This document shows, piece by piece, positions 11,359-59,030 of a stretch of 64,000 bases of DNA. The DNA is from an uncultured Eubacterium sp. (GTDB lineage Bacteria; Bacillota; Clostridia; Lachnospirales; Lachnospiraceae). Each line of letters begins with the position of its first letter. The first letter of the stretch is position 1. The notes beneath the pieces are model-generated. The model ran no database searches. It saw nothing but the letters and a program-made list of their open reading frames with translations, and was not told where the DNA came from. The stretch is from assembly GCA_910586045.1 (NCBI GenBank), contig CAJUIH010000002.1:6711-70710 (forward strand), in the 5' to 3' direction. The position numbers and the translations under genes were made by a program.

Positions 11359-11380
11359 CCGTGTTTTTTAAATCCTTTCC

Positions 11381-11474
11381 TATATAAACGGCGTAAAATT
11401 TCAGCACAATATCATTTGTTTCTGGCCCGCCGTTTATCGGGTTTATTGTGCAGTATTCAATCACCGAATATATA
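11381..11474 (-). repeat. 94-nt repeat element, copy 1 (in the 5' leader of the cell-wall protein gene)
   Basis: Near-identical to 24307-24400 and 35954-36047. It ends 22 nt upstream of the start codon at 11358. Confidence 0.85.
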
Positions 11475-11734
11475 AATTTGTAAAATCATGTCTGATATCC
11501 TGCCAAAACAGTATCCTCCATACAGATGAAAACAGCATGAAAGCACTGCCAAAAAAGAGTTTTGTCCAAGATTCAAACACCTAACATATATAAAGTACGC
11601 ACGTATCGCAAAAAATACCGGTATCCTGCTAAATTTTATTGACATACCTTTCACAAAGTAATAAATTATAAGTATGGCAGAAAGCTTTCACTTTCAGCAG
11701 CTACTATCACATATTCATTAGGAGGGTTCGAACA

Positions 11735-22468: not shown

Positions 22469-22497
22469 ATTATAGCACAGAGTATTTTAAATTACCA
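22469..22497 (-). promoter_or_regulatory. candidate extended -10 promoter of tig
   Basis: On the minus strand, TGGTAA (22497-22492), a 17-nt spacer, then TGcTATAAT (-10 at 22474-22469), about 85 nt upstream of tig. Confidence 0.5.
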
Positions 22498-22563
22498 GTA
22501 TTTTTTTTAGGAATTGGGCGTTGTTTTGGCCTTGGGCGGTTTTTCGTTACGGCTTCGCGCACG

Positions 22564-22796
22564 CCTGGGGAGGGGGCTTTTTCATGCGGCTGTGACTCTC
22601 CGTAAAGCAAGAAGTTCTAAGTTTTCTGCATATTCGATTGTAAAACCGGACGGACCGGGCCTGCACCCGCCTTCCGTGGCGGGCAGGCCCTTTTGGGGAC
22701 ATCCGTGTCCCAAAATCCTGTGTACCGAGCAGAAAACTAAGAACTTCTACGCTTTTCTCCAAAGTCACAGCCGCAGGAAAAAGCCCCCTACCCAGG
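22564..22796 (-). repeat. long-hairpin repeat, subfamily 1, copy A (core inverted relative to copies B and E)
   Basis: The arms are complementary end to end: cctggggagggggcttttt…ttctaagttttctgc pairs with gcagaaaactaagaa…aaaaagccccctacccagg. The core matches copies B and E when reverse-complemented. Confidence 0.85.
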
Positions 22797-22830
22797 CTGA
22801 CAGGAATAAACGATACGTTTTTATTATTTT

Positions 22831-24299
22831 ACACCAGTTTACAACTTTTTACAAAAATAAAAATACAAACCCATCTTTTCATTGTATAATTTAAGCGTCC
22901 AAACAAAAAAATACGAAAGAAGATGAGTTTGTATCTACCGCTTATTATACATGAAAAATTCTGTCCTGGACAGACTGAAAAATTATTTTAATGAATATTT
23001 TTCGGATGCAACGAAACCCACTGCAAGGAATCTGTTCCTTATCGTTGTTTCCATACTGGCGCTGGACATTTTCCGTTCGGTACGCTTCGCCCACAGGCAT
23101 GTGCTTTCAAAAATTTCAGACACATCGCTGAATGCGTATTACTATGCGCTTAAAACTAACAGGCTGGATCATGAATCCTGGAGGGATGTGACATTATCAA
23201 AAGCATTAAAGGCTGTGCCGGAGCAGCTGGCTGCACAGCCCCTGTTCCTTTCCGTTGATGACACGATGGTGGAAAAGGAAGGTAAAAAATTCGAACTCCG
23301 CTCAAAGCTTTTGACCATGCCGCGCATAATGGTTCCAATTACCTGAATGGACACTGTATGGTAAGCATTCTGCTGTCATTCCCGGTCTTGGCGGACAGTT
23401 CCATGCGTTACCTGTCTGTCCCTCTTGGGTACCGGCTCTGGGACAAAAAACAGACAAAGCTGGAAATTGCCGCCGAAATGGTGCGGCATGCTGTGGACAG
23501 CATCGGTTCAGACAGGCAGGTGTTCCTGCTCTGCGACATCTGGTATCCGAAAGGATGTGTTGCAGGCCTTGTGGACGAATATGAAAACCTCGACATCATA
23601 TGCAATGCCAGAATAGATACAGTCATGTATGACTTTCCGCCGGAACGCACAGGGAAACGGGGCCGTCCAAAGAAATACGGTGAACGCCTGTCGCCGGAAG
23701 ATTTCGTGCTTGAATCCCCAAAAACCGGGGACTGAAAGATCGGCGTGCGCCCGATGCTGACCAGGCTCTGGAGCGGGCGTGTGGTCTATGCCGCTGTCAC
23801 GCTCCCGAAAAGCGGGAATGGAAGCCGCAGGCTTTTCTTCTGCACAAAAAATCCGGAAAGCATCATTCTGGACTACAGTAACTGCGAAGACGAAACAATC
23901 CGCGGCTATGGGGAAGAAAATGAAAAATTTCTCCCTGTCGCCTGTTACTCGCCGCGCTGTAACATTGAGGTGTCGTATTATGAAAGCAAGACTTTCTGGT
24001 CACTGGAGGAATACCGTGTACGCAGCCGTGAAAGTATTGAACGCCTGGTAAATTTAGAGTGTATAGCTTACAGTGCCATGACACTGCTCCCATACATTGA
24101 TGAATCCTTTTCGTGCTACAAGTCTTTGGGCGCACAGGAAACTAAGTTTGGCATTGGACAGCAGATTCAGGCAAGTATAATATTCAGCAGTTTCGTAGAA
24201 TCCCTCGAAACTGTAAAAAAAGCGCAGTCATTTATTAAAATATATAGAAGGCTACGTTTTATCAGGGTTCAAAAAAATCCAAAAGTTGTAAACTGGTGT
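22831..24299 (+). mobile_element. decayed IS element (IS4/IS701-like DDE transposase)
   Basis: 19-bp perfect terminal inverted repeats acaccagtttacaactttt (22831-22849 and the reverse complement of 24281-24299). 8-bp direct repeats attatttt at 22823-22830 and 24300-24307. Confidence 0.8.
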
Positions 24300-24320
24300 A
24301 TTATTTTATATATTCGGTGA
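22951..24320 (+). pseudogene. IS transposase gene inactivated by one frameshift and one in-frame stop
   Basis: Three consecutive ORFs (22951-23346, 23358-23735, 23745-24320). The frame shifts around 23300-23315 (…ELRSKL then …FDHAAHNGSNYLNGHCMVS continues in another frame). ORF2 and ORF3 share a frame and are separated by TGA 23733-23735. Confidence 0.8.
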
Positions 24321-24400
24321 TTAAATACTGCACAATAAACCCGATAAACGGCGGGCCAGAAACAAATGATATTGTGCTGAAATTTTACGCCGTTTATATA
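24307..24400 (+). repeat. 94-nt repeat element, copy 2
   Basis: Near-identical to 11381-11474 (reverse complement) and 35954-36047. It starts at the last base of the IS target duplication. Confidence 0.85.
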
Positions 24401-24694
24401 GGTCTATACAGCTTCTACATAAAGTAATGAAAATGCTTTTACATGGGAAATCTTAACCTTTGACTAAATTGCTGAAGCATTATAAAGACTAAACAAACGA
24501 AACAGATCTTTTATTTATTCTCTTTTCATCGATTTTTTGAAAGTTTTTCAACTGGTTTACCAATACTCGTATATTTTGTGTTATCATGTTTTATATGAAT
24601 TTGGTTTCCTTTTATTTGTCCATGTTTATAAATGGAACCGTTCACTTTTCAAAAATTATTAAATTGCAATTAATATTGACAAAGGAGAAAAAAC

Positions 24695-25294: not shown

Positions 25295-25370
25295 ATTCCT
25301 ATTTACAGCGGGGCGCGCCAAGATAAATTATGCTTGTCTATTTTTCCGAACGCACATTGTTTCACTGCCA

Positions 25371-25595
25371 GCCGGAAACGGGGGTCCCTGCGGCTGTGAC
25401 TGCGTAAGAACGTTAGAAGCTCTTAGTATTCTGCTCGTAACCTAGGATTTTCAGGCAAGGATGCCTGAAAAAGGGTCTGTCCGCCACGGACGGCGGATAC
25501 AGACCCGGTCCGTATACAGCCGAAACCAAAATGCAGAATACTTAGAGCTTCTTACGTTCGAAAGCGTCACAGCCGCGGGGACCCCCGTTTCCGGC
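25371..25595 (+). repeat. long-hairpin repeat, subfamily 1, copy B
   Basis: Arms gccggaaacgggggtccctgcggctgtgac… and …gtcacagccgcggggacccccgtttccggc are complementary with one mismatch. It carries the conserved box and apical core. It lies between convergent genes. Confidence 0.85.
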
Positions 25596-25655
25596 GTCCG
25601 CGAAGCCGTACCCTACATTCCCGCTTTCACCGTCCGGGAGGCCGCACCCTATACC

Positions 25656-28766
<3,111 letters not shown>

Positions 28767-35347: not shown

Positions 35348-35544
35348 AACTTCCTCCTGTATGGCCCAGCCACCAAATCCTTGCGCCGCAAAAGTTTTTT
35401 ATGCGGCTTAATATGATTTTTATTTTGATTTGATATAGTATTCATTACTACTTGATAATACCATCATTACGGAAGTTTGTAAATACATTTTTTTAAAATG
35501 GAGGGGGATTTTGTGGGGGTGCGCGGGGGAAGTGGGGGAAGTGG

Positions 35545-35771
35545 GGAGAGGCGGTTTACCCGGCCTTACGGCGGCCCTCCAGAACGTTAAGAATCCCTAA
35601 GCATTCTGTTTTTACGCAGCGTAAGGCCCCGGTCGCGGCGCCTAGTCCGCCCTGGCCCCCGCCAGTGGCTAAAGGCGCCGCTTGGCTTCGCCCCTACGTT
35701 ATCGAACAGAATGCTAAGGGATTCTAAACGTTCTTTCAAAGCCGCCGTAAGGCCGGGCAAACCACCTCTCC
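35545..35771 (-). repeat. long-hairpin repeat, subfamily 2, copy C (core inverted relative to copy D)
   Basis: Arms ggagaggcggtttacccggccttacggcgg… and …ccgccgtaaggccgggcaaaccacctctcc. The core matches copy D when reverse-complemented. Confidence 0.85.
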
Positions 35772-35953
35772 AGTCTAGCCTTTCGCATGCGTTACGCCGC
35801 ATTTGCTCACGGATCGTCCTGTTAACCGTTTATTGGTCAATCCACTTTCGTTATCCAGTTTCTGGTATGTATATTACCACTCCTGGATCCAGGATATTTT
35901 TCCAAAGGCCTGCTGTCTATCGAGCTAGCTATTTTTAGCCAGCATTCGATACC

Positions 35954-36047
35954 TATATATTCGGTGATCGAATACTGCACAATAAACCCGATAAACGGCA
36001 GGCCAGAAACAAATGATATTGTGCTGAAATTTTACGCCGTTTATATA
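35954..36047 (+). repeat. 94-nt repeat element, copy 3
   Basis: Near-identical to the two other copies. It lies inside the ORF-free island. Confidence 0.85.
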
Positions 36048-36207
36048 GTACATCGGTCACTAAATAACGCAAAGGTAGGCGCCGGATATTTTTTCGAGCG
36101 TGCATGACAAAAACCGGAGGTGTACCGGGGATCCCTCGGATTTTTGCCATGTACTATCGGAAAAATAGACAAATAAAACTATGAGATATTTATTGGCCGA
36201 TGTACTA
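36046..36207. repeat. 162-bp inverted-repeat unit with a nested hairpin
   Basis: 21-nt arms tagtacatcggtcactaaata (36046-36066) and tatttattggccgatgtacta (36187-36207) match at 19 of 21 positions. An inner imperfect inverted repeat is catgacaaaaaccggagg / ccctcggatttttgccatg. Confidence 0.7.
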
Positions 36208-36209
36208 AT

Positions 36210-36360
36210 GCCCTGTAAAGTCTAAAACTGTTACAAAACAAGGCACTGAAAATGAACTATTCAGCAAAAATTGGCTTAGGATACAGCCTTTTCAACTTTT
36301 TACTGCTATATTACCAAAAACAAATAAAATATTTTATAACAGTTTTAGCCTTTACAGGGC
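36210..36360. repeat. 151-bp MITE-like unit with 23-bp terminal inverted repeats
   Basis: gccctgtaaagtctaaaactgtt (36210-36232) and aacagttttagcctttacagggc (36338-36360) are complementary at 22 of 23 positions. Confidence 0.7.
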
Positions 36361-36452
36361 ACTCGCATACAAACCTGCTCCACGAAACCATGCCAGCCGC
36401 CCGCTGTCACACTATGAATGCCCTACATTTCACGTAAAGCCCGAGAAAACCA

Positions 36453-36688
36453 GCCGGCTGCGGGGCGGGGGACTGGCTTGCGGCGACGTTGGAAGAATGC
36501 TTAGAATCCCTTAGCATTCTGTTCGGTAACGCAGGGGCGAAGCAAAGCGGCGCCTTTAGCTGCTGGCGTAAGCCAGGGCGAACTAGGCGCCGCGTCCGGG
36601 GCATGCCGTTTTGTAAATACAGAATGCTTAGAGATTCTTAGCATTCTGGAGCCGGAGCCGCAAGCCAGTCCCCCGCCCCGCAGCCGGC
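36453..36688 (+). repeat. long-hairpin repeat, subfamily 2, copy D
   Basis: The outer 32 nt, gccggctgcggggcgggggactggcttgcggc, is perfectly complementary to 36657-36688. It carries the shared box cagaatgcttagagattc and the subfamily-2 core. Confidence 0.85.
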
Positions 36689-36720
36689 GTCCCCTCAGCC
36701 GATCAAAACTATGCCAATCC

Positions 36721-53016: not shown

Positions 53017-53152
53017 TTTCCCTGTCCTTTCTGTGCGTCTCGTATGTACCATTTCCTGAATTGTAACTCTCATTATAAGACAGGGGATATGGAAAAGCAA
53101 GAAAAAATACGGCCTATGGCCGTATTGTACTGTTTAGATCAGTGGCTGCGGC

Positions 53153-53397
53153 GACGCCGGATGGAGAAAAATTTCCCTTTCTGGTATGATTCTGAAAAAA
53201 AGCTGGAAGTTCTTAGTTTTCTGCTCTATGCACAGGATTTTCGGGCACGGATGCCCGAAAAAGGAAGCTGCTGCGCCATGGACGGCGCATCAGCTTCCGG
53301 TCCGTCCATTACCGCAAATGATCGGGCAGAAAACTTAGAACTTCCAGCTTTTCTTCAGCGGAATACCAGAAAGGGAAATTTTTCTCCATCCGGCGTC
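53153..53397 (+). repeat. long-hairpin repeat, subfamily 1, copy E
   Basis: The outer 35 bp are perfectly complementary (gacgccggatggagaaaaatttccctttctggtat / ataccagaaagggaaatttttctccatccggcgtc). The box and core are shared with copies A and B. Confidence 0.85.
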
Positions 53398-53485
53398 CGG
53401 ACATGTCATAACGTAAATTGCGGAATGCTTAGGGGATTCTTGGTTCCGGAGAGCCTCTGTTCGCAATGCAACTGTACGACACTTC

Positions 53486-57006: not shown

Positions 57007-57141
57007 GCTGGTAAATGTCGGTATAGCCTGTATTTTAGGGCTTTATCGGCATTTTCCTTTGGGAAGATACTCTGCATAAGCTGGCATTTACCAGCATGAA
57101 AATGCAACCAAAAGTAGTAAATGAGTAGTACAATCACCGAT

Positions 57142-58338
57142 TTAAGAAGCAAGAGCCAGTCTTTCAAGTTCTGCTTTTGCTGAATTGAAAGTACCGTGTG
57201 CGTAGCACCCTAATGTCATGGTGATGTTTGAATGTCCCATGATGTATTGCAGGGTGTTCGGGTTCATTCCTTTGTTTGCCATGTTCGTGCAGTAGGTATG
57301 TCTGAATGAGTGCGGTGTGATGTTTGGTAGCTGGTCTTTATGTGTCTTGTTGTATTTCTTCACAAGCCCACGCATCATACTTTCGTAGTTGCCAGCCACT
57401 TTAGGGAAACCCTTTTGGTTTAGGAACAGGAAATTGCTGTAACCATTGATAACGATAGGCTCTGCCTTTCCTCTGTTCTGTAACACTCGCTTAAAGGCTT
57501 GATAGGCTCTTTCTGTCATTGGAAGCTGGCGTTCTCCTTTTTTGGTCTTAGGTGTTTCAATGTAGTAGCCGATTTCAGTATCTTTCAATAGCTGGTGGTC
57601 TACATTGATGATACGGTTCGCCATATCTATATGGACTGTCAGACCGCAAAATTCAGAGATACGAAGCCCCGTTTCCAGAAGAATAACCACTTCATCATAA
57701 TACTTGCTGTACGTCTTGTCCTGTTCCATAAAGGCAAGCAATTTTTCTTCCTGCTCTGGCGTGAGAATGACTTTAGGCTCTGAATTATCTTCCAGAACGT
57801 CGCTCAATTTGAAGCTGAAAGGATTCTTTCTGATACAGTCGTCCTCAATCGCCATATAGAATGACGCTTTCAGAGAACGCTTGTAGTTGCTAATCGTCTT
57901 GTAGGAAAAGCCATTCTCATACATTCGCATAGCCCATTCCTTACCGTCCGATAGCTTTACCGTATCAATGCTCCTTGCACCCAGAGGGTCGTTTTCCAGA
58001 ATTTTCATAAGATAATGGCGACCTTTTTCTGTGTTGCGTTTCACATTCTTTCTCTGGCTGTTCTTCTTTGCGTAAAGCTGGCAGACTGTCATTTTCCCGC
58101 CTATGGTGTTAATACCGTCGTCGAGGTCTTTCTTAATCTTTTTCTGCTTTTCCCTCAATGACAAATCTTCACGTTTCCCAGCGGGTGTCTTGTCTGTCGG
58201 AACAAGTTTCCAAGCATAGACAAACTGTGGTTGCCCGTACATATCGGTATATTTGTAAACGTATCTTCCGTCTTTTCTCTGGCTCTCTCCAAGTCGTAAA
58301 TTGCGTCCCTTGCTGTCTTTTCTCTTTACATTAGACAT
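57142..58338 (-). CDS. int: tyrosine recombinase, Tn916-type integrase
   Basis: N-terminal arm-binding domain (…RKDGRYVYKYTDMYGQP…) and catalytic R…HxxR…Y (…HSFRHTYCT…LGCYAH). Confidence 0.95.
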   Translation of the reverse strand: MSNVKRKDSKGRNLRLGESQRKDGRYVYKYTDMYGQPQFVYAWKLVPTDKTPAGKREDLSLREKQKKIKKDLDDGINTIGGKMTVCQLYAKKNSQRKNVKRNTEKGRHYLMKILENDPLGARSIDTVKLSDGKEWAMRMYENGFSYKTISNYKRSLKASFYMAIEDDCIRKNPFSFKLSDVLEDNSEPKVILTPEQEEKLLAFMEQDKTYSKYYDEVVILLETGLRISEFCGLTVHIDMANRIINVDHQLLKDTEIGYYIETPKTKKGERQLPMTERAYQAFKRVLQNRGKAEPIVINGYSNFLFLNQKGFPKVAGNYESMMRGLVKKYNKTHKDQLPNITPHSFRHTYCTNMANKGMNPNTLQYIMGHSNITMTLGCYAHGTFNSAKAELERLALAS

Positions 58339-58417
58339 AGTGCGAAGCTCCTTTCCGTCAAGGAATGAGCCGTTGATACGCTATACTTTATTATACCATA
58401 TCTACGGCTCGCTGACA

Positions 58418-58624
58418 TTAGATTTCGTCCAATGTATCAATGATTTTTTCAAACTGTTTTCGCTTAATCTGCACACGGTTTCCGTTCACAATCACCCAGC
58501 CAGCGTCGAGGTTTTCCTCTGCCAGTTTACGCAATTTCTTTTCCCCGATACGGAAGTATTTTGACGCTTCCTCAATCGTCAGCGTGTACTTCTCCCAGAT
58601 AGGCACATCAGTATTGTTTGTCAT
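58418..58624 (-). CDS. xis: excisionase, Tn916 Xis type
   Basis: …[32 protein letters not shown]…[22 protein letters not shown] is nearly collinear with Tn916 Xis. Confidence 0.9.
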
Positions 58625-59030
58625 ATATAAGCACCCCCTTTACTGTGTGTCTTTTGGAAGCAGACAGACGGCTCTGGAAAAGCTCCGCTGGTATCTCAAC
58701 CAATCTCATTCCTATGAGCAAAACCACCTTTGGGACGTATCATTATCCTGTGAATACAGGTCGTGGCAAAGCGACTTTTCCAACGGTCGCTCTCGGATCA
58801 CTGCATGGGTCGCTCGCTCTCTTTTGGAAAGGTCATGGCGTACAGTCTCCGTGGCTCGCTGTATCACAAACGTATCTGTCTGCTTTATTCACTTGTCAAA
58901 GAACAACGGCTGTTTATACGCCTGTCAAAGCCCATATAAATACAAAGATATATAGACTTTGAAAGATGTATAAATCCCAGAGAGGACGCAGGAAAGGGGG
59001 TAATGCGTCACTCTGTAATGGGACGTTGGT

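Follow-up and report, generated by a model that had tools for sequence, protein, structure and literature searches.

Three long intergenic hairpins in a Eubacterium contig are members of the TwoAYGGAY RNA family

Three long hairpins in the window, the 64-kb stretch of an uncultured Eubacterium sp. contig (CAJUIH010000002.1) analysed here, are members of TwoAYGGAY, a catalogued RNA family. An Rfam scan of the window returned three matches to RF01731, all full-length (model positions 1–168 of 168), with E-values of 3e-21 to 4e-18 and scores of 107–121 bits against a curated gathering threshold of 43 bits: copy 3 at 53191–53359 (+; 120.8 bits), copy 2 at 25401–25566 (+; 120.2 bits) and copy 1 at 22597–22762 (-; 107.1 bits). 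A sequence-only reading of the same DNA had not recognised the hairpins as a described family and had let that point turn on an Rfam search, Clostridiales-1 included. The search found RF01731 and no Clostridiales-1 match, and the Rfam scans matched no family other than RF01731 for any core type; against three full-length matches to a family published in 2010, the claim of novelty fails. TwoAYGGAY was described from human-gut metagenomes, Clostridiales and gamma-proteobacteria and rated a probable RNA that is not cis-regulatory, and its very large P1 closing stem was already mentioned in the supplement (Weinberg et al. 2010, Genome Biol 11:R31). It was proposed in 2014, as a proposal only, to be a CsrA-binding decoy RNA (PMC4333381), and a 2025 preprint terms the motif 'relatively unexplored'. 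We read the three elements, with moderate confidence, as genes or modules of a TwoAYGGAY RNA. The window holds three such units of ~240 nt each; the positions first given for the hairpins were right, although the units actually reach slightly further, to conserved termini:

22480–22557, minus strand: 3' tail of copy 1, GCGAAGCCGTAACGAAAAACCGCCC..., then an A-run
22558–22800, minus strand: full unit of copy 1 (RF01731 match; inverted repeat I3; minimum free energy -149.6 kcal/mol, fold z = -11.6)
25368–25599, plus strand: full unit of copy 2, with 5' terminus CCAGCCGG, long P1 arms, box, three-way TwoAYGGAY core and 3' terminus CCGGCGTCC (RF01731 match; inverted repeats I4 and I8; terminus motif; minimum free energy -156.6 kcal/mol, fold z = -15.0)
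25600–25680, plus strand: 3' tail of copy 2, the GCGAAGCC motif followed by a C-rich, G-poor stretch
53152–53398, plus strand: full unit of copy 3 (RF01731 match; inverted repeat I1 with 77-nt arms; minimum free energy -168.9 kcal/mol, fold z = -16.8)

As in RF01731, two hairpins with A-N-GGA-Y loops sit on a three-way junction above a very long P1, with tandem G·A pairs in the stem, gut Clostridia as hosts and a setting that is not cis-regulatory. The H1 loops read AAGGAU, ACGGAU and ACGGAU and the H2 loops ACGGAC, ACGGAA and AUGGAC; A stands in place of Y in H1 of copy 2 and in H2 of copy 1, and GGA is invariant. P1 spans the termini to the junction with ~60 pairs, most of them covarying. 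Relatives were found in Eubacterium and Lachnospiraceae MAGs, within the host range given for RF01731 (Clostridiales, human gut and gamma-proteobacteria); the window's sister strains are metagenome and MAG assemblies, and sporulation genes lie near. None of the differences from RF01731 is essential. The window units are ~35 nt longer per side than the 168-position Rfam model, out to the conserved termini and to a 3' tail that is polar. In copies 1 and 2, Watson–Crick pairs (GUGAC/GUCAC) stand in place of one tandem G·A.

Each unit is built from two parts: the termini, box and stem form a carrier, or chassis, that is distinct from the apical module. Relatives were pooled from a reference-genome scan and a chassis-only metagenome scan, which gave 88 units in 78 loci plus the window. 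The unit boundaries are common to all lineages, CAGCYGG on the 5' side and CCRGCGTCC on the 3' side, preceded by an A-rich leader (...GTAAAgcc...GAAAAC) and followed by the motif GNGMRGCCAYC. The window contains CCGGCGTCC exactly three times, always at the 3' end of a unit. The initial description of the hairpins as the reverse of a MITE, with termini that are not conserved, was thus overstated. The shared box is borne out: AGAAGYTCTTAGTWTTCTGC matches six times at <=3 mismatches, once per arm per unit, against 0.01 expected, and it holds a central U·U mismatch inside a 5-bp CUUAG/CUUAG palindrome. The repeat search recovered the unit arms independently (I1, I3, I4 and I8). Self-complementarity of the distal arms likewise stands, but the arms of copies 1 and 2 are in part related, since both carry CCTGCGGCTGTGAC.

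Sequence composition differs between the two sides of the unit. In each of the 48 non-redundant contexts, C outnumbers G over the 80 nt past the 3' terminus (C 33%, G 12%, median C/G 2.6), a rut-like C-rich tail common to all of them; the 80 nt upstream of the unit are near parity (C 22%, G 18%). In copy 2 the tail runs into the stop of the convergent lacZ at 25656. Rho-utilisation regions typically show this C-rich, G-poor polarity, and the polar tail favours reading of the unit on the Rfam sense strand. Two further observations concern this part of the unit. The 3' tail (CCRGCGTCC plus 15–35 nt) is present as two or three tandem copies in loci L005, L051, L075, L046 and L011, and at window positions 35500–35544 a 9-nt tail repeat, CCCCACTTC, differs in copy number among strains.

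All three units fold end to end into a long hairpin (z = -11.6 to -16.8), as first described, and none of 200 dinucleotide shuffles per unit folds as well. The apical core is present in each, with H1 and H2 stems that differ between copies yet remain paired, and the irregularity at one position of H2 proved to be a 2-nt bulge or mismatch. Stem covariation was assessed in an alignment of 13 independent TwoAYGGAY-type units, drawn from the window, from metagenomes and from three MAGs. Of the 83 pairs that RNAalifold predicts, 53 are kept through two-sided changes, and the stem extends to an invariant GC...GC at the termini. Loops and junction read CA-N-GGAU/C in 13 of 13 units. The pseudoknot suggested between the H2 loop and the GTCCGT that follows H2 is possible but unsupported: pairing can form in 93.6% of cells, but it shows no compensatory change and is matched by 500 of 500 shuffles. 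The UCC of GTCCGT is also complementary to the invariant 5'-junction AGGA or to the H1 loop.

The step from compensatory variation to selection on structure needs a caveat, even though the covariation itself is confirmed, as palindrome correction would yield the same pattern in the arms. Identity between lineages is 41% in the distal arms, 82% in the box and 76% in the core, and within a unit 26–29 of 29 distal-arm positions are Watson–Crick, with ~1% G·U. Since arms only 41% identical are nonetheless near-perfectly Watson–Crick, arm covariation alone is no proof of selection on an RNA fold. Quasi-palindrome (template-switch) correction of DNA is an established mutational mechanism. Acting at the DNA level, it would be expected to yield this arm pattern without selection on an RNA fold, and it is probably what largely keeps the distal arms complementary.

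Base-pair statistics point both ways, and the original framing of the hairpins as either a structured RNA or a hairpin-forming DNA element was a fair one. In a direct comparison of the arms across 33 lineages, used because counts from minimum-free-energy folds of both strands were uninformative, G·U (51) and A·C (38) revealed no wobble bias. This, together with distal arms that contain almost no G·U, counts against the RNA reading, and much of the covariation could have arisen at the DNA level. Strain SNPs in the stems are too few to decide, two giving G·U on the sense strand and one giving C·A. Purine–purine mismatches, by comparison, recur at fixed positions on one strand (A·G 122, G·G 22 and A·A 19 versus C·T 40 and C·C 2 in the 33 lineages), an example being the tandem G·A formed by 5'-GUGAC facing 5'-GGAAC. 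The fixed G·A and U·U mismatches have persisted in spite of the homogenising tendency, and with the invariant loops and the polar tail they point to a single-strand function, most simply that of an RNA. The conserved 5' leader yielded no sigma-70 or sigma-28 promoter with consistent spacing or conservation across lineages. Promoter-like sites exceed expectation in one place only, a spacer between units of the MAG CANDMI01 (3 versus 0.2 expected, on both strands), where one of them would start transcription 1–3 nt ahead of the 5' terminus of a unit.

All three copies are intergenic, as first noted, and their flanking genes are mutually unrelated. Copy 1 lies ~180 nt upstream of the trigger factor gene (tig), on the strand of that gene, with clpP also adjoining. 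Copy 2 lies between a DJ-1/PfpI gene and the convergent lacZ, directly 3' of DJ-1 and on the same strand. Copy 3 lies between the start of MatE and the stop of a DUF4179 anti-sigma gene, part of an anti-sigma/ECF-sigma pair, and is antisense to both. Orientation to the flanking genes is random overall, with 27 opposite and 21 same upstream, and 41 opposite and 35 same downstream. Random orientation and unrelated neighbours imply that the units are neither 5' UTR nor 3' UTR elements and are not cis-regulatory. Genes within 4 kb of the 88 units include no recurrent protein family; the top clusters are spurious ORFs running through the units themselves. Three other features of the window were recorded. 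Just upstream of copy 3, at 53106–53126, a 9-bp G+C-rich hairpin is followed by minus-strand T-runs; it lies between copy 3 and the start region of MatE and is probably a terminator-like site for both directions. A Tn916-type integrase (398 aa) and Xis at ~57100–58700 lie ~4 kb from copy 3 and adjoin the ECF sigma/anti-sigma pair. A long-arm tRNA gene of 84 nt occupies 2011–2094 on the minus strand (Rfam tRNA, 48.1 bits).

Copy number reaches dozens of units in some gut Clostridia genomes, and the window alone holds five chassis units in 64 kb. Reference-genome loci gave at least 25 TwoAYGGAY matches, nearly all of them in a single Eubacterium MAG and many of them at the ends of contigs, and one metagenome contains 26 near-identical copies in which conservation extends from about -30 to +20 around the hairpin. 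The Psychromonas seed members of RF01731 are also multicopy and lie in repeated flanks. In the MAG CANDMI01, two TwoAYGGAY units stand head to head around a ~215-nt spacer (L016:6005-6780; also L012, L001, L019, L003 and L018). These pairs sit in a ~1-kb composite bounded by its own terminal inverted repeats (TGCCGGATAACGCTCTATTATTGATGATTTACAC), and it is this composite, carrying the units as cargo, that is amplified. Head-to-head (-,+) pairs occur in at least four lineages, including window 35545/36450, metagenome L042 and L051/L094. Units were absent from the viral contigs and plasmids searched.

The main rival to the RNA reading, a single-stranded DNA hairpin in a REPIN- or MITE-like element, draws on several of these features and is in our estimate rather doubtful. 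It takes the unit as mainly a non-autonomous mobile DNA element, with a hairpin that a transposase or HUH-type enzyme would recognise in trans, the apical core being a protein-recognition structure in DNA, not RNA. High copy number with bursts of near-identical copies, the conserved termini CAGCYGG and CCRGCGTCC, the tandemly duplicated 3' tails and the recurrent head-to-head pairs would all suit such an element, as would arms that are almost purely Watson–Crick despite 41% identity between lineages, with no wobble bias. Like REP/REPIN, ERIC and MITE sequences, the units are non-coding, intergenic, multicopy hairpins with complementary arms, inverted doublets and lineage-specific bursts of amplification. 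Unlike them, they are most conserved in an apical, asymmetric part and have a polar 3' tail. The units also differ from REP/REPIN and MITE sequences in having no RAYT or transposase recurrently associated within 4 kb, no target-site duplication and no insertion polymorphism between strains. A DNA site that is double-stranded or symmetric would not readily account for the fixed purine–purine mismatches or for the polar C-rich tail. Against this rival also stand the absence of any recurrent transposase or other protein family near the units, the composite amplified in CANDMI01 with its own terminal inverted repeats, and the absence of units from viral contigs and plasmids.

Mobility was further assessed by comparing same-species assemblies at the three loci (21–22 contigs per locus). 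Among the matches listed per site, the units occupy identical positions in 7–8 strain loci, and no clean empty site was seen among these at any of the three. Insertion or excision polymorphism between strains was not found, and the only two differences were a deletion and a rearrangement. L027 and L030 have lost the stretch between the interior of copy 1 and a point ~170 nt upstream of the DJ-1 start codon, and of copy 1 only the tig-proximal outer arm remains; in L035, the 5' half of copy 3 has been exchanged for other sequence by a rearrangement, and synteny past copy 3 differs as well. Breakpoints inside the unit could be taken as a trace of mobility, but in both cases their position within the hairpin fits palindrome fragility and not excision. 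No direct repeat flanks the units, which have an A-rich leader on the 5' side versus GCGAAGCC and a C-rich tail on the 3' side; of the termini, only GCYGG/CCRGC are complementary. Derivation of the arms from flanking target DNA is excluded, the conserved termini lying outside the arms.

As a positive control, an unrelated MITE of ~92–98 nt in the same repeat-rich intergenic region is cleanly absent in L097, with a TA duplication. Its copies in the window are 97–99% identical:

11379–11476, reverse: small MITE-like repeat
24305–24402: small MITE-like repeat
35954–36048: small MITE-like repeat

The repeat is probably an active or recently active MITE that is unrelated to the hairpin units. Lying beside two of them, it was considered as a part of the element and rejected on the strength of its separate absence in L097. 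The transposase beside copy 1 was likewise rejected as a partner of the units. It is part of an independent IS at 22830–24300, whose terminal inverted repeats are perfect over 20 bp (TTACACCAGTTTACAACTTT), and is split into three ORFs with a weak DDE_5 match; in L027 and L030 the IS is gone, within the deletion that also takes most of copy 1.

Two other readings are unlikely. The units might be large terminators or mRNA-stabilising 3' hairpins of the REP or ERIC kind with no function of their own, a very improbable account to which the stability and intergenic position of the hairpins, and the place of copy 2 just after DJ-1 on the same strand, lend some colour. However, the sense strand has no T-run after the stem and orientation to the upstream genes is random, both of which speak against an intrinsic terminator; copy 3 runs antisense to the genes on either side, copy 1 precedes a gene, and the apical loops and junction are conserved across phyla. 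Least probable of all is that the variable arms serve as programmable guide- or spacer-like sequences that target foreign or host nucleic acids after duplex processing: arms do differ wholly between copies while box and termini are conserved, but they have no exact match in viral contigs, match only other units within the window, are both locked in perfect duplex and have no associated effector gene.

The chassis also carries other apical cores. Two units in the window belong to this group:

35545–35778, minus strand: alternative-core unit, head-to-head (-,+) partner of 36450–36692 and 85% identical to it over 175 nt
36450–36692, plus strand: alternative-core unit with the same chassis (CCAGCCGG ... 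CCGGCGTCC, box AGAATCCCTTAGCATTCTG) and another apical core

Most units found by the chassis-only metagenome scan lack the TwoAYGGAY core. Among metagenome units on this chassis, the commonest core of all is an alternative one, in which a small GGC-GNA-GCC hairpin precedes a stem with an invariant UUUAGC...GCGAAYU internal loop; a hybrid and two sub-variants were distinguished. This core covaries too, one pair, for example, being G–C in 11 sequences and A–U in 7. It matched no Rfam family, even at E-values up to 1. Between the two alternative-core units of the window lie two more long imperfect hairpins, at 36046–36207 and 36209–36361, with arms 83% and 93% complementary; neither has an Rfam match beyond chance.

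These findings suggest, tentatively, that gut Clostridia contain a broader, undescribed class of modular long-hairpin cassettes, with TwoAYGGAY as just one of its apical modules. Such a cassette might comprise the 5' leader, CAGCYGG, a variable, self-correcting stem, the CUUAG box with its U·U mismatch, the tandem G·A, CCRGCGTCC, GCGAAGCC and the C-rich tail. It is conceivable, at a similarly low level of confidence, that the chassis spreads in genomes without a linked protein gene, carrying interchangeable structured RNA cores.

On the RNA reading that we prefer, transcription of the unit in the Rfam sense direction would give a highly stable RNA of ~230 nt, predicted to form a long P1 topped by a three-way junction. 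The two hairpins of the junction would display CA-N-GGA-YG loops, with a third GGA at the junction itself. This apex may bind and titrate a dimeric protein that recognises GGA loops, with CsrA as the leading candidate. P1, with its fixed tandem G·A and U·U mismatches, could serve as a stalk that stabilises the RNA or helps its processing, and Rho-type termination could take place in the C-rich, G-poor tail. As DNA, the unit is a dispersed non-coding repeat, amplified in some genomes and able to carry other apical modules; it presumably spreads within genomes.

CsrA specifically, as the protein partner, is a tentative suggestion made by analogy. Like the CsrB/RsmZ sRNAs, TwoAYGGAY presents GGA motifs in hairpin loops in a CA-N-GGAUG context, and Rfam lists the family in clan CL00106, which we take to be the Csr/Rsm clan. 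The two GGA sites of TwoAYGGAY lie ~30 nt apart, a spacing that suits one CsrA dimer. Two loop GGAs and one junction GGA, in CA-N-GGA context, are invariant in the 13 aligned units. The resemblance has its limits: TwoAYGGAY carries only 2–3 sites per RNA, enclosed in a stem of ~75–110 bp, whereas CsrB carries many more, and dozens of gene copies per genome are unusual for a Csr-type decoy. Neither CsrA nor FliW was found in the 860 kb searched, which consists of genome fragments only. The CA-N-GGA loop context matches the CsrA site noted in PMC4333381. The alternative cores have no GGA loops, which means that the chassis itself is not a CsrA device.

The hairpins of the window thus amount to a rediscovery of a catalogued RNA family and add no new kind of element. 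TwoAYGGAY has been an orphan family for more than 15 years, and the modest value of the window lies there. Together with its relatives, it offers handles for experiments in the exact unit boundaries and in a polar, rut-like tail that predicts the transcribed strand; the fixed non-canonical pairs mark likely protein contacts, and the sister module without GGA loops on the same chassis is a natural control for a CsrA-binding test. A general caution also follows, in that covariation in long, near-perfect hairpins is not by itself proof of selection on an RNA fold. If the cassette reading is true, small RNA genes would have in the chassis a non-autonomous vehicle of a new kind, spread perhaps through ssDNA or RNA.
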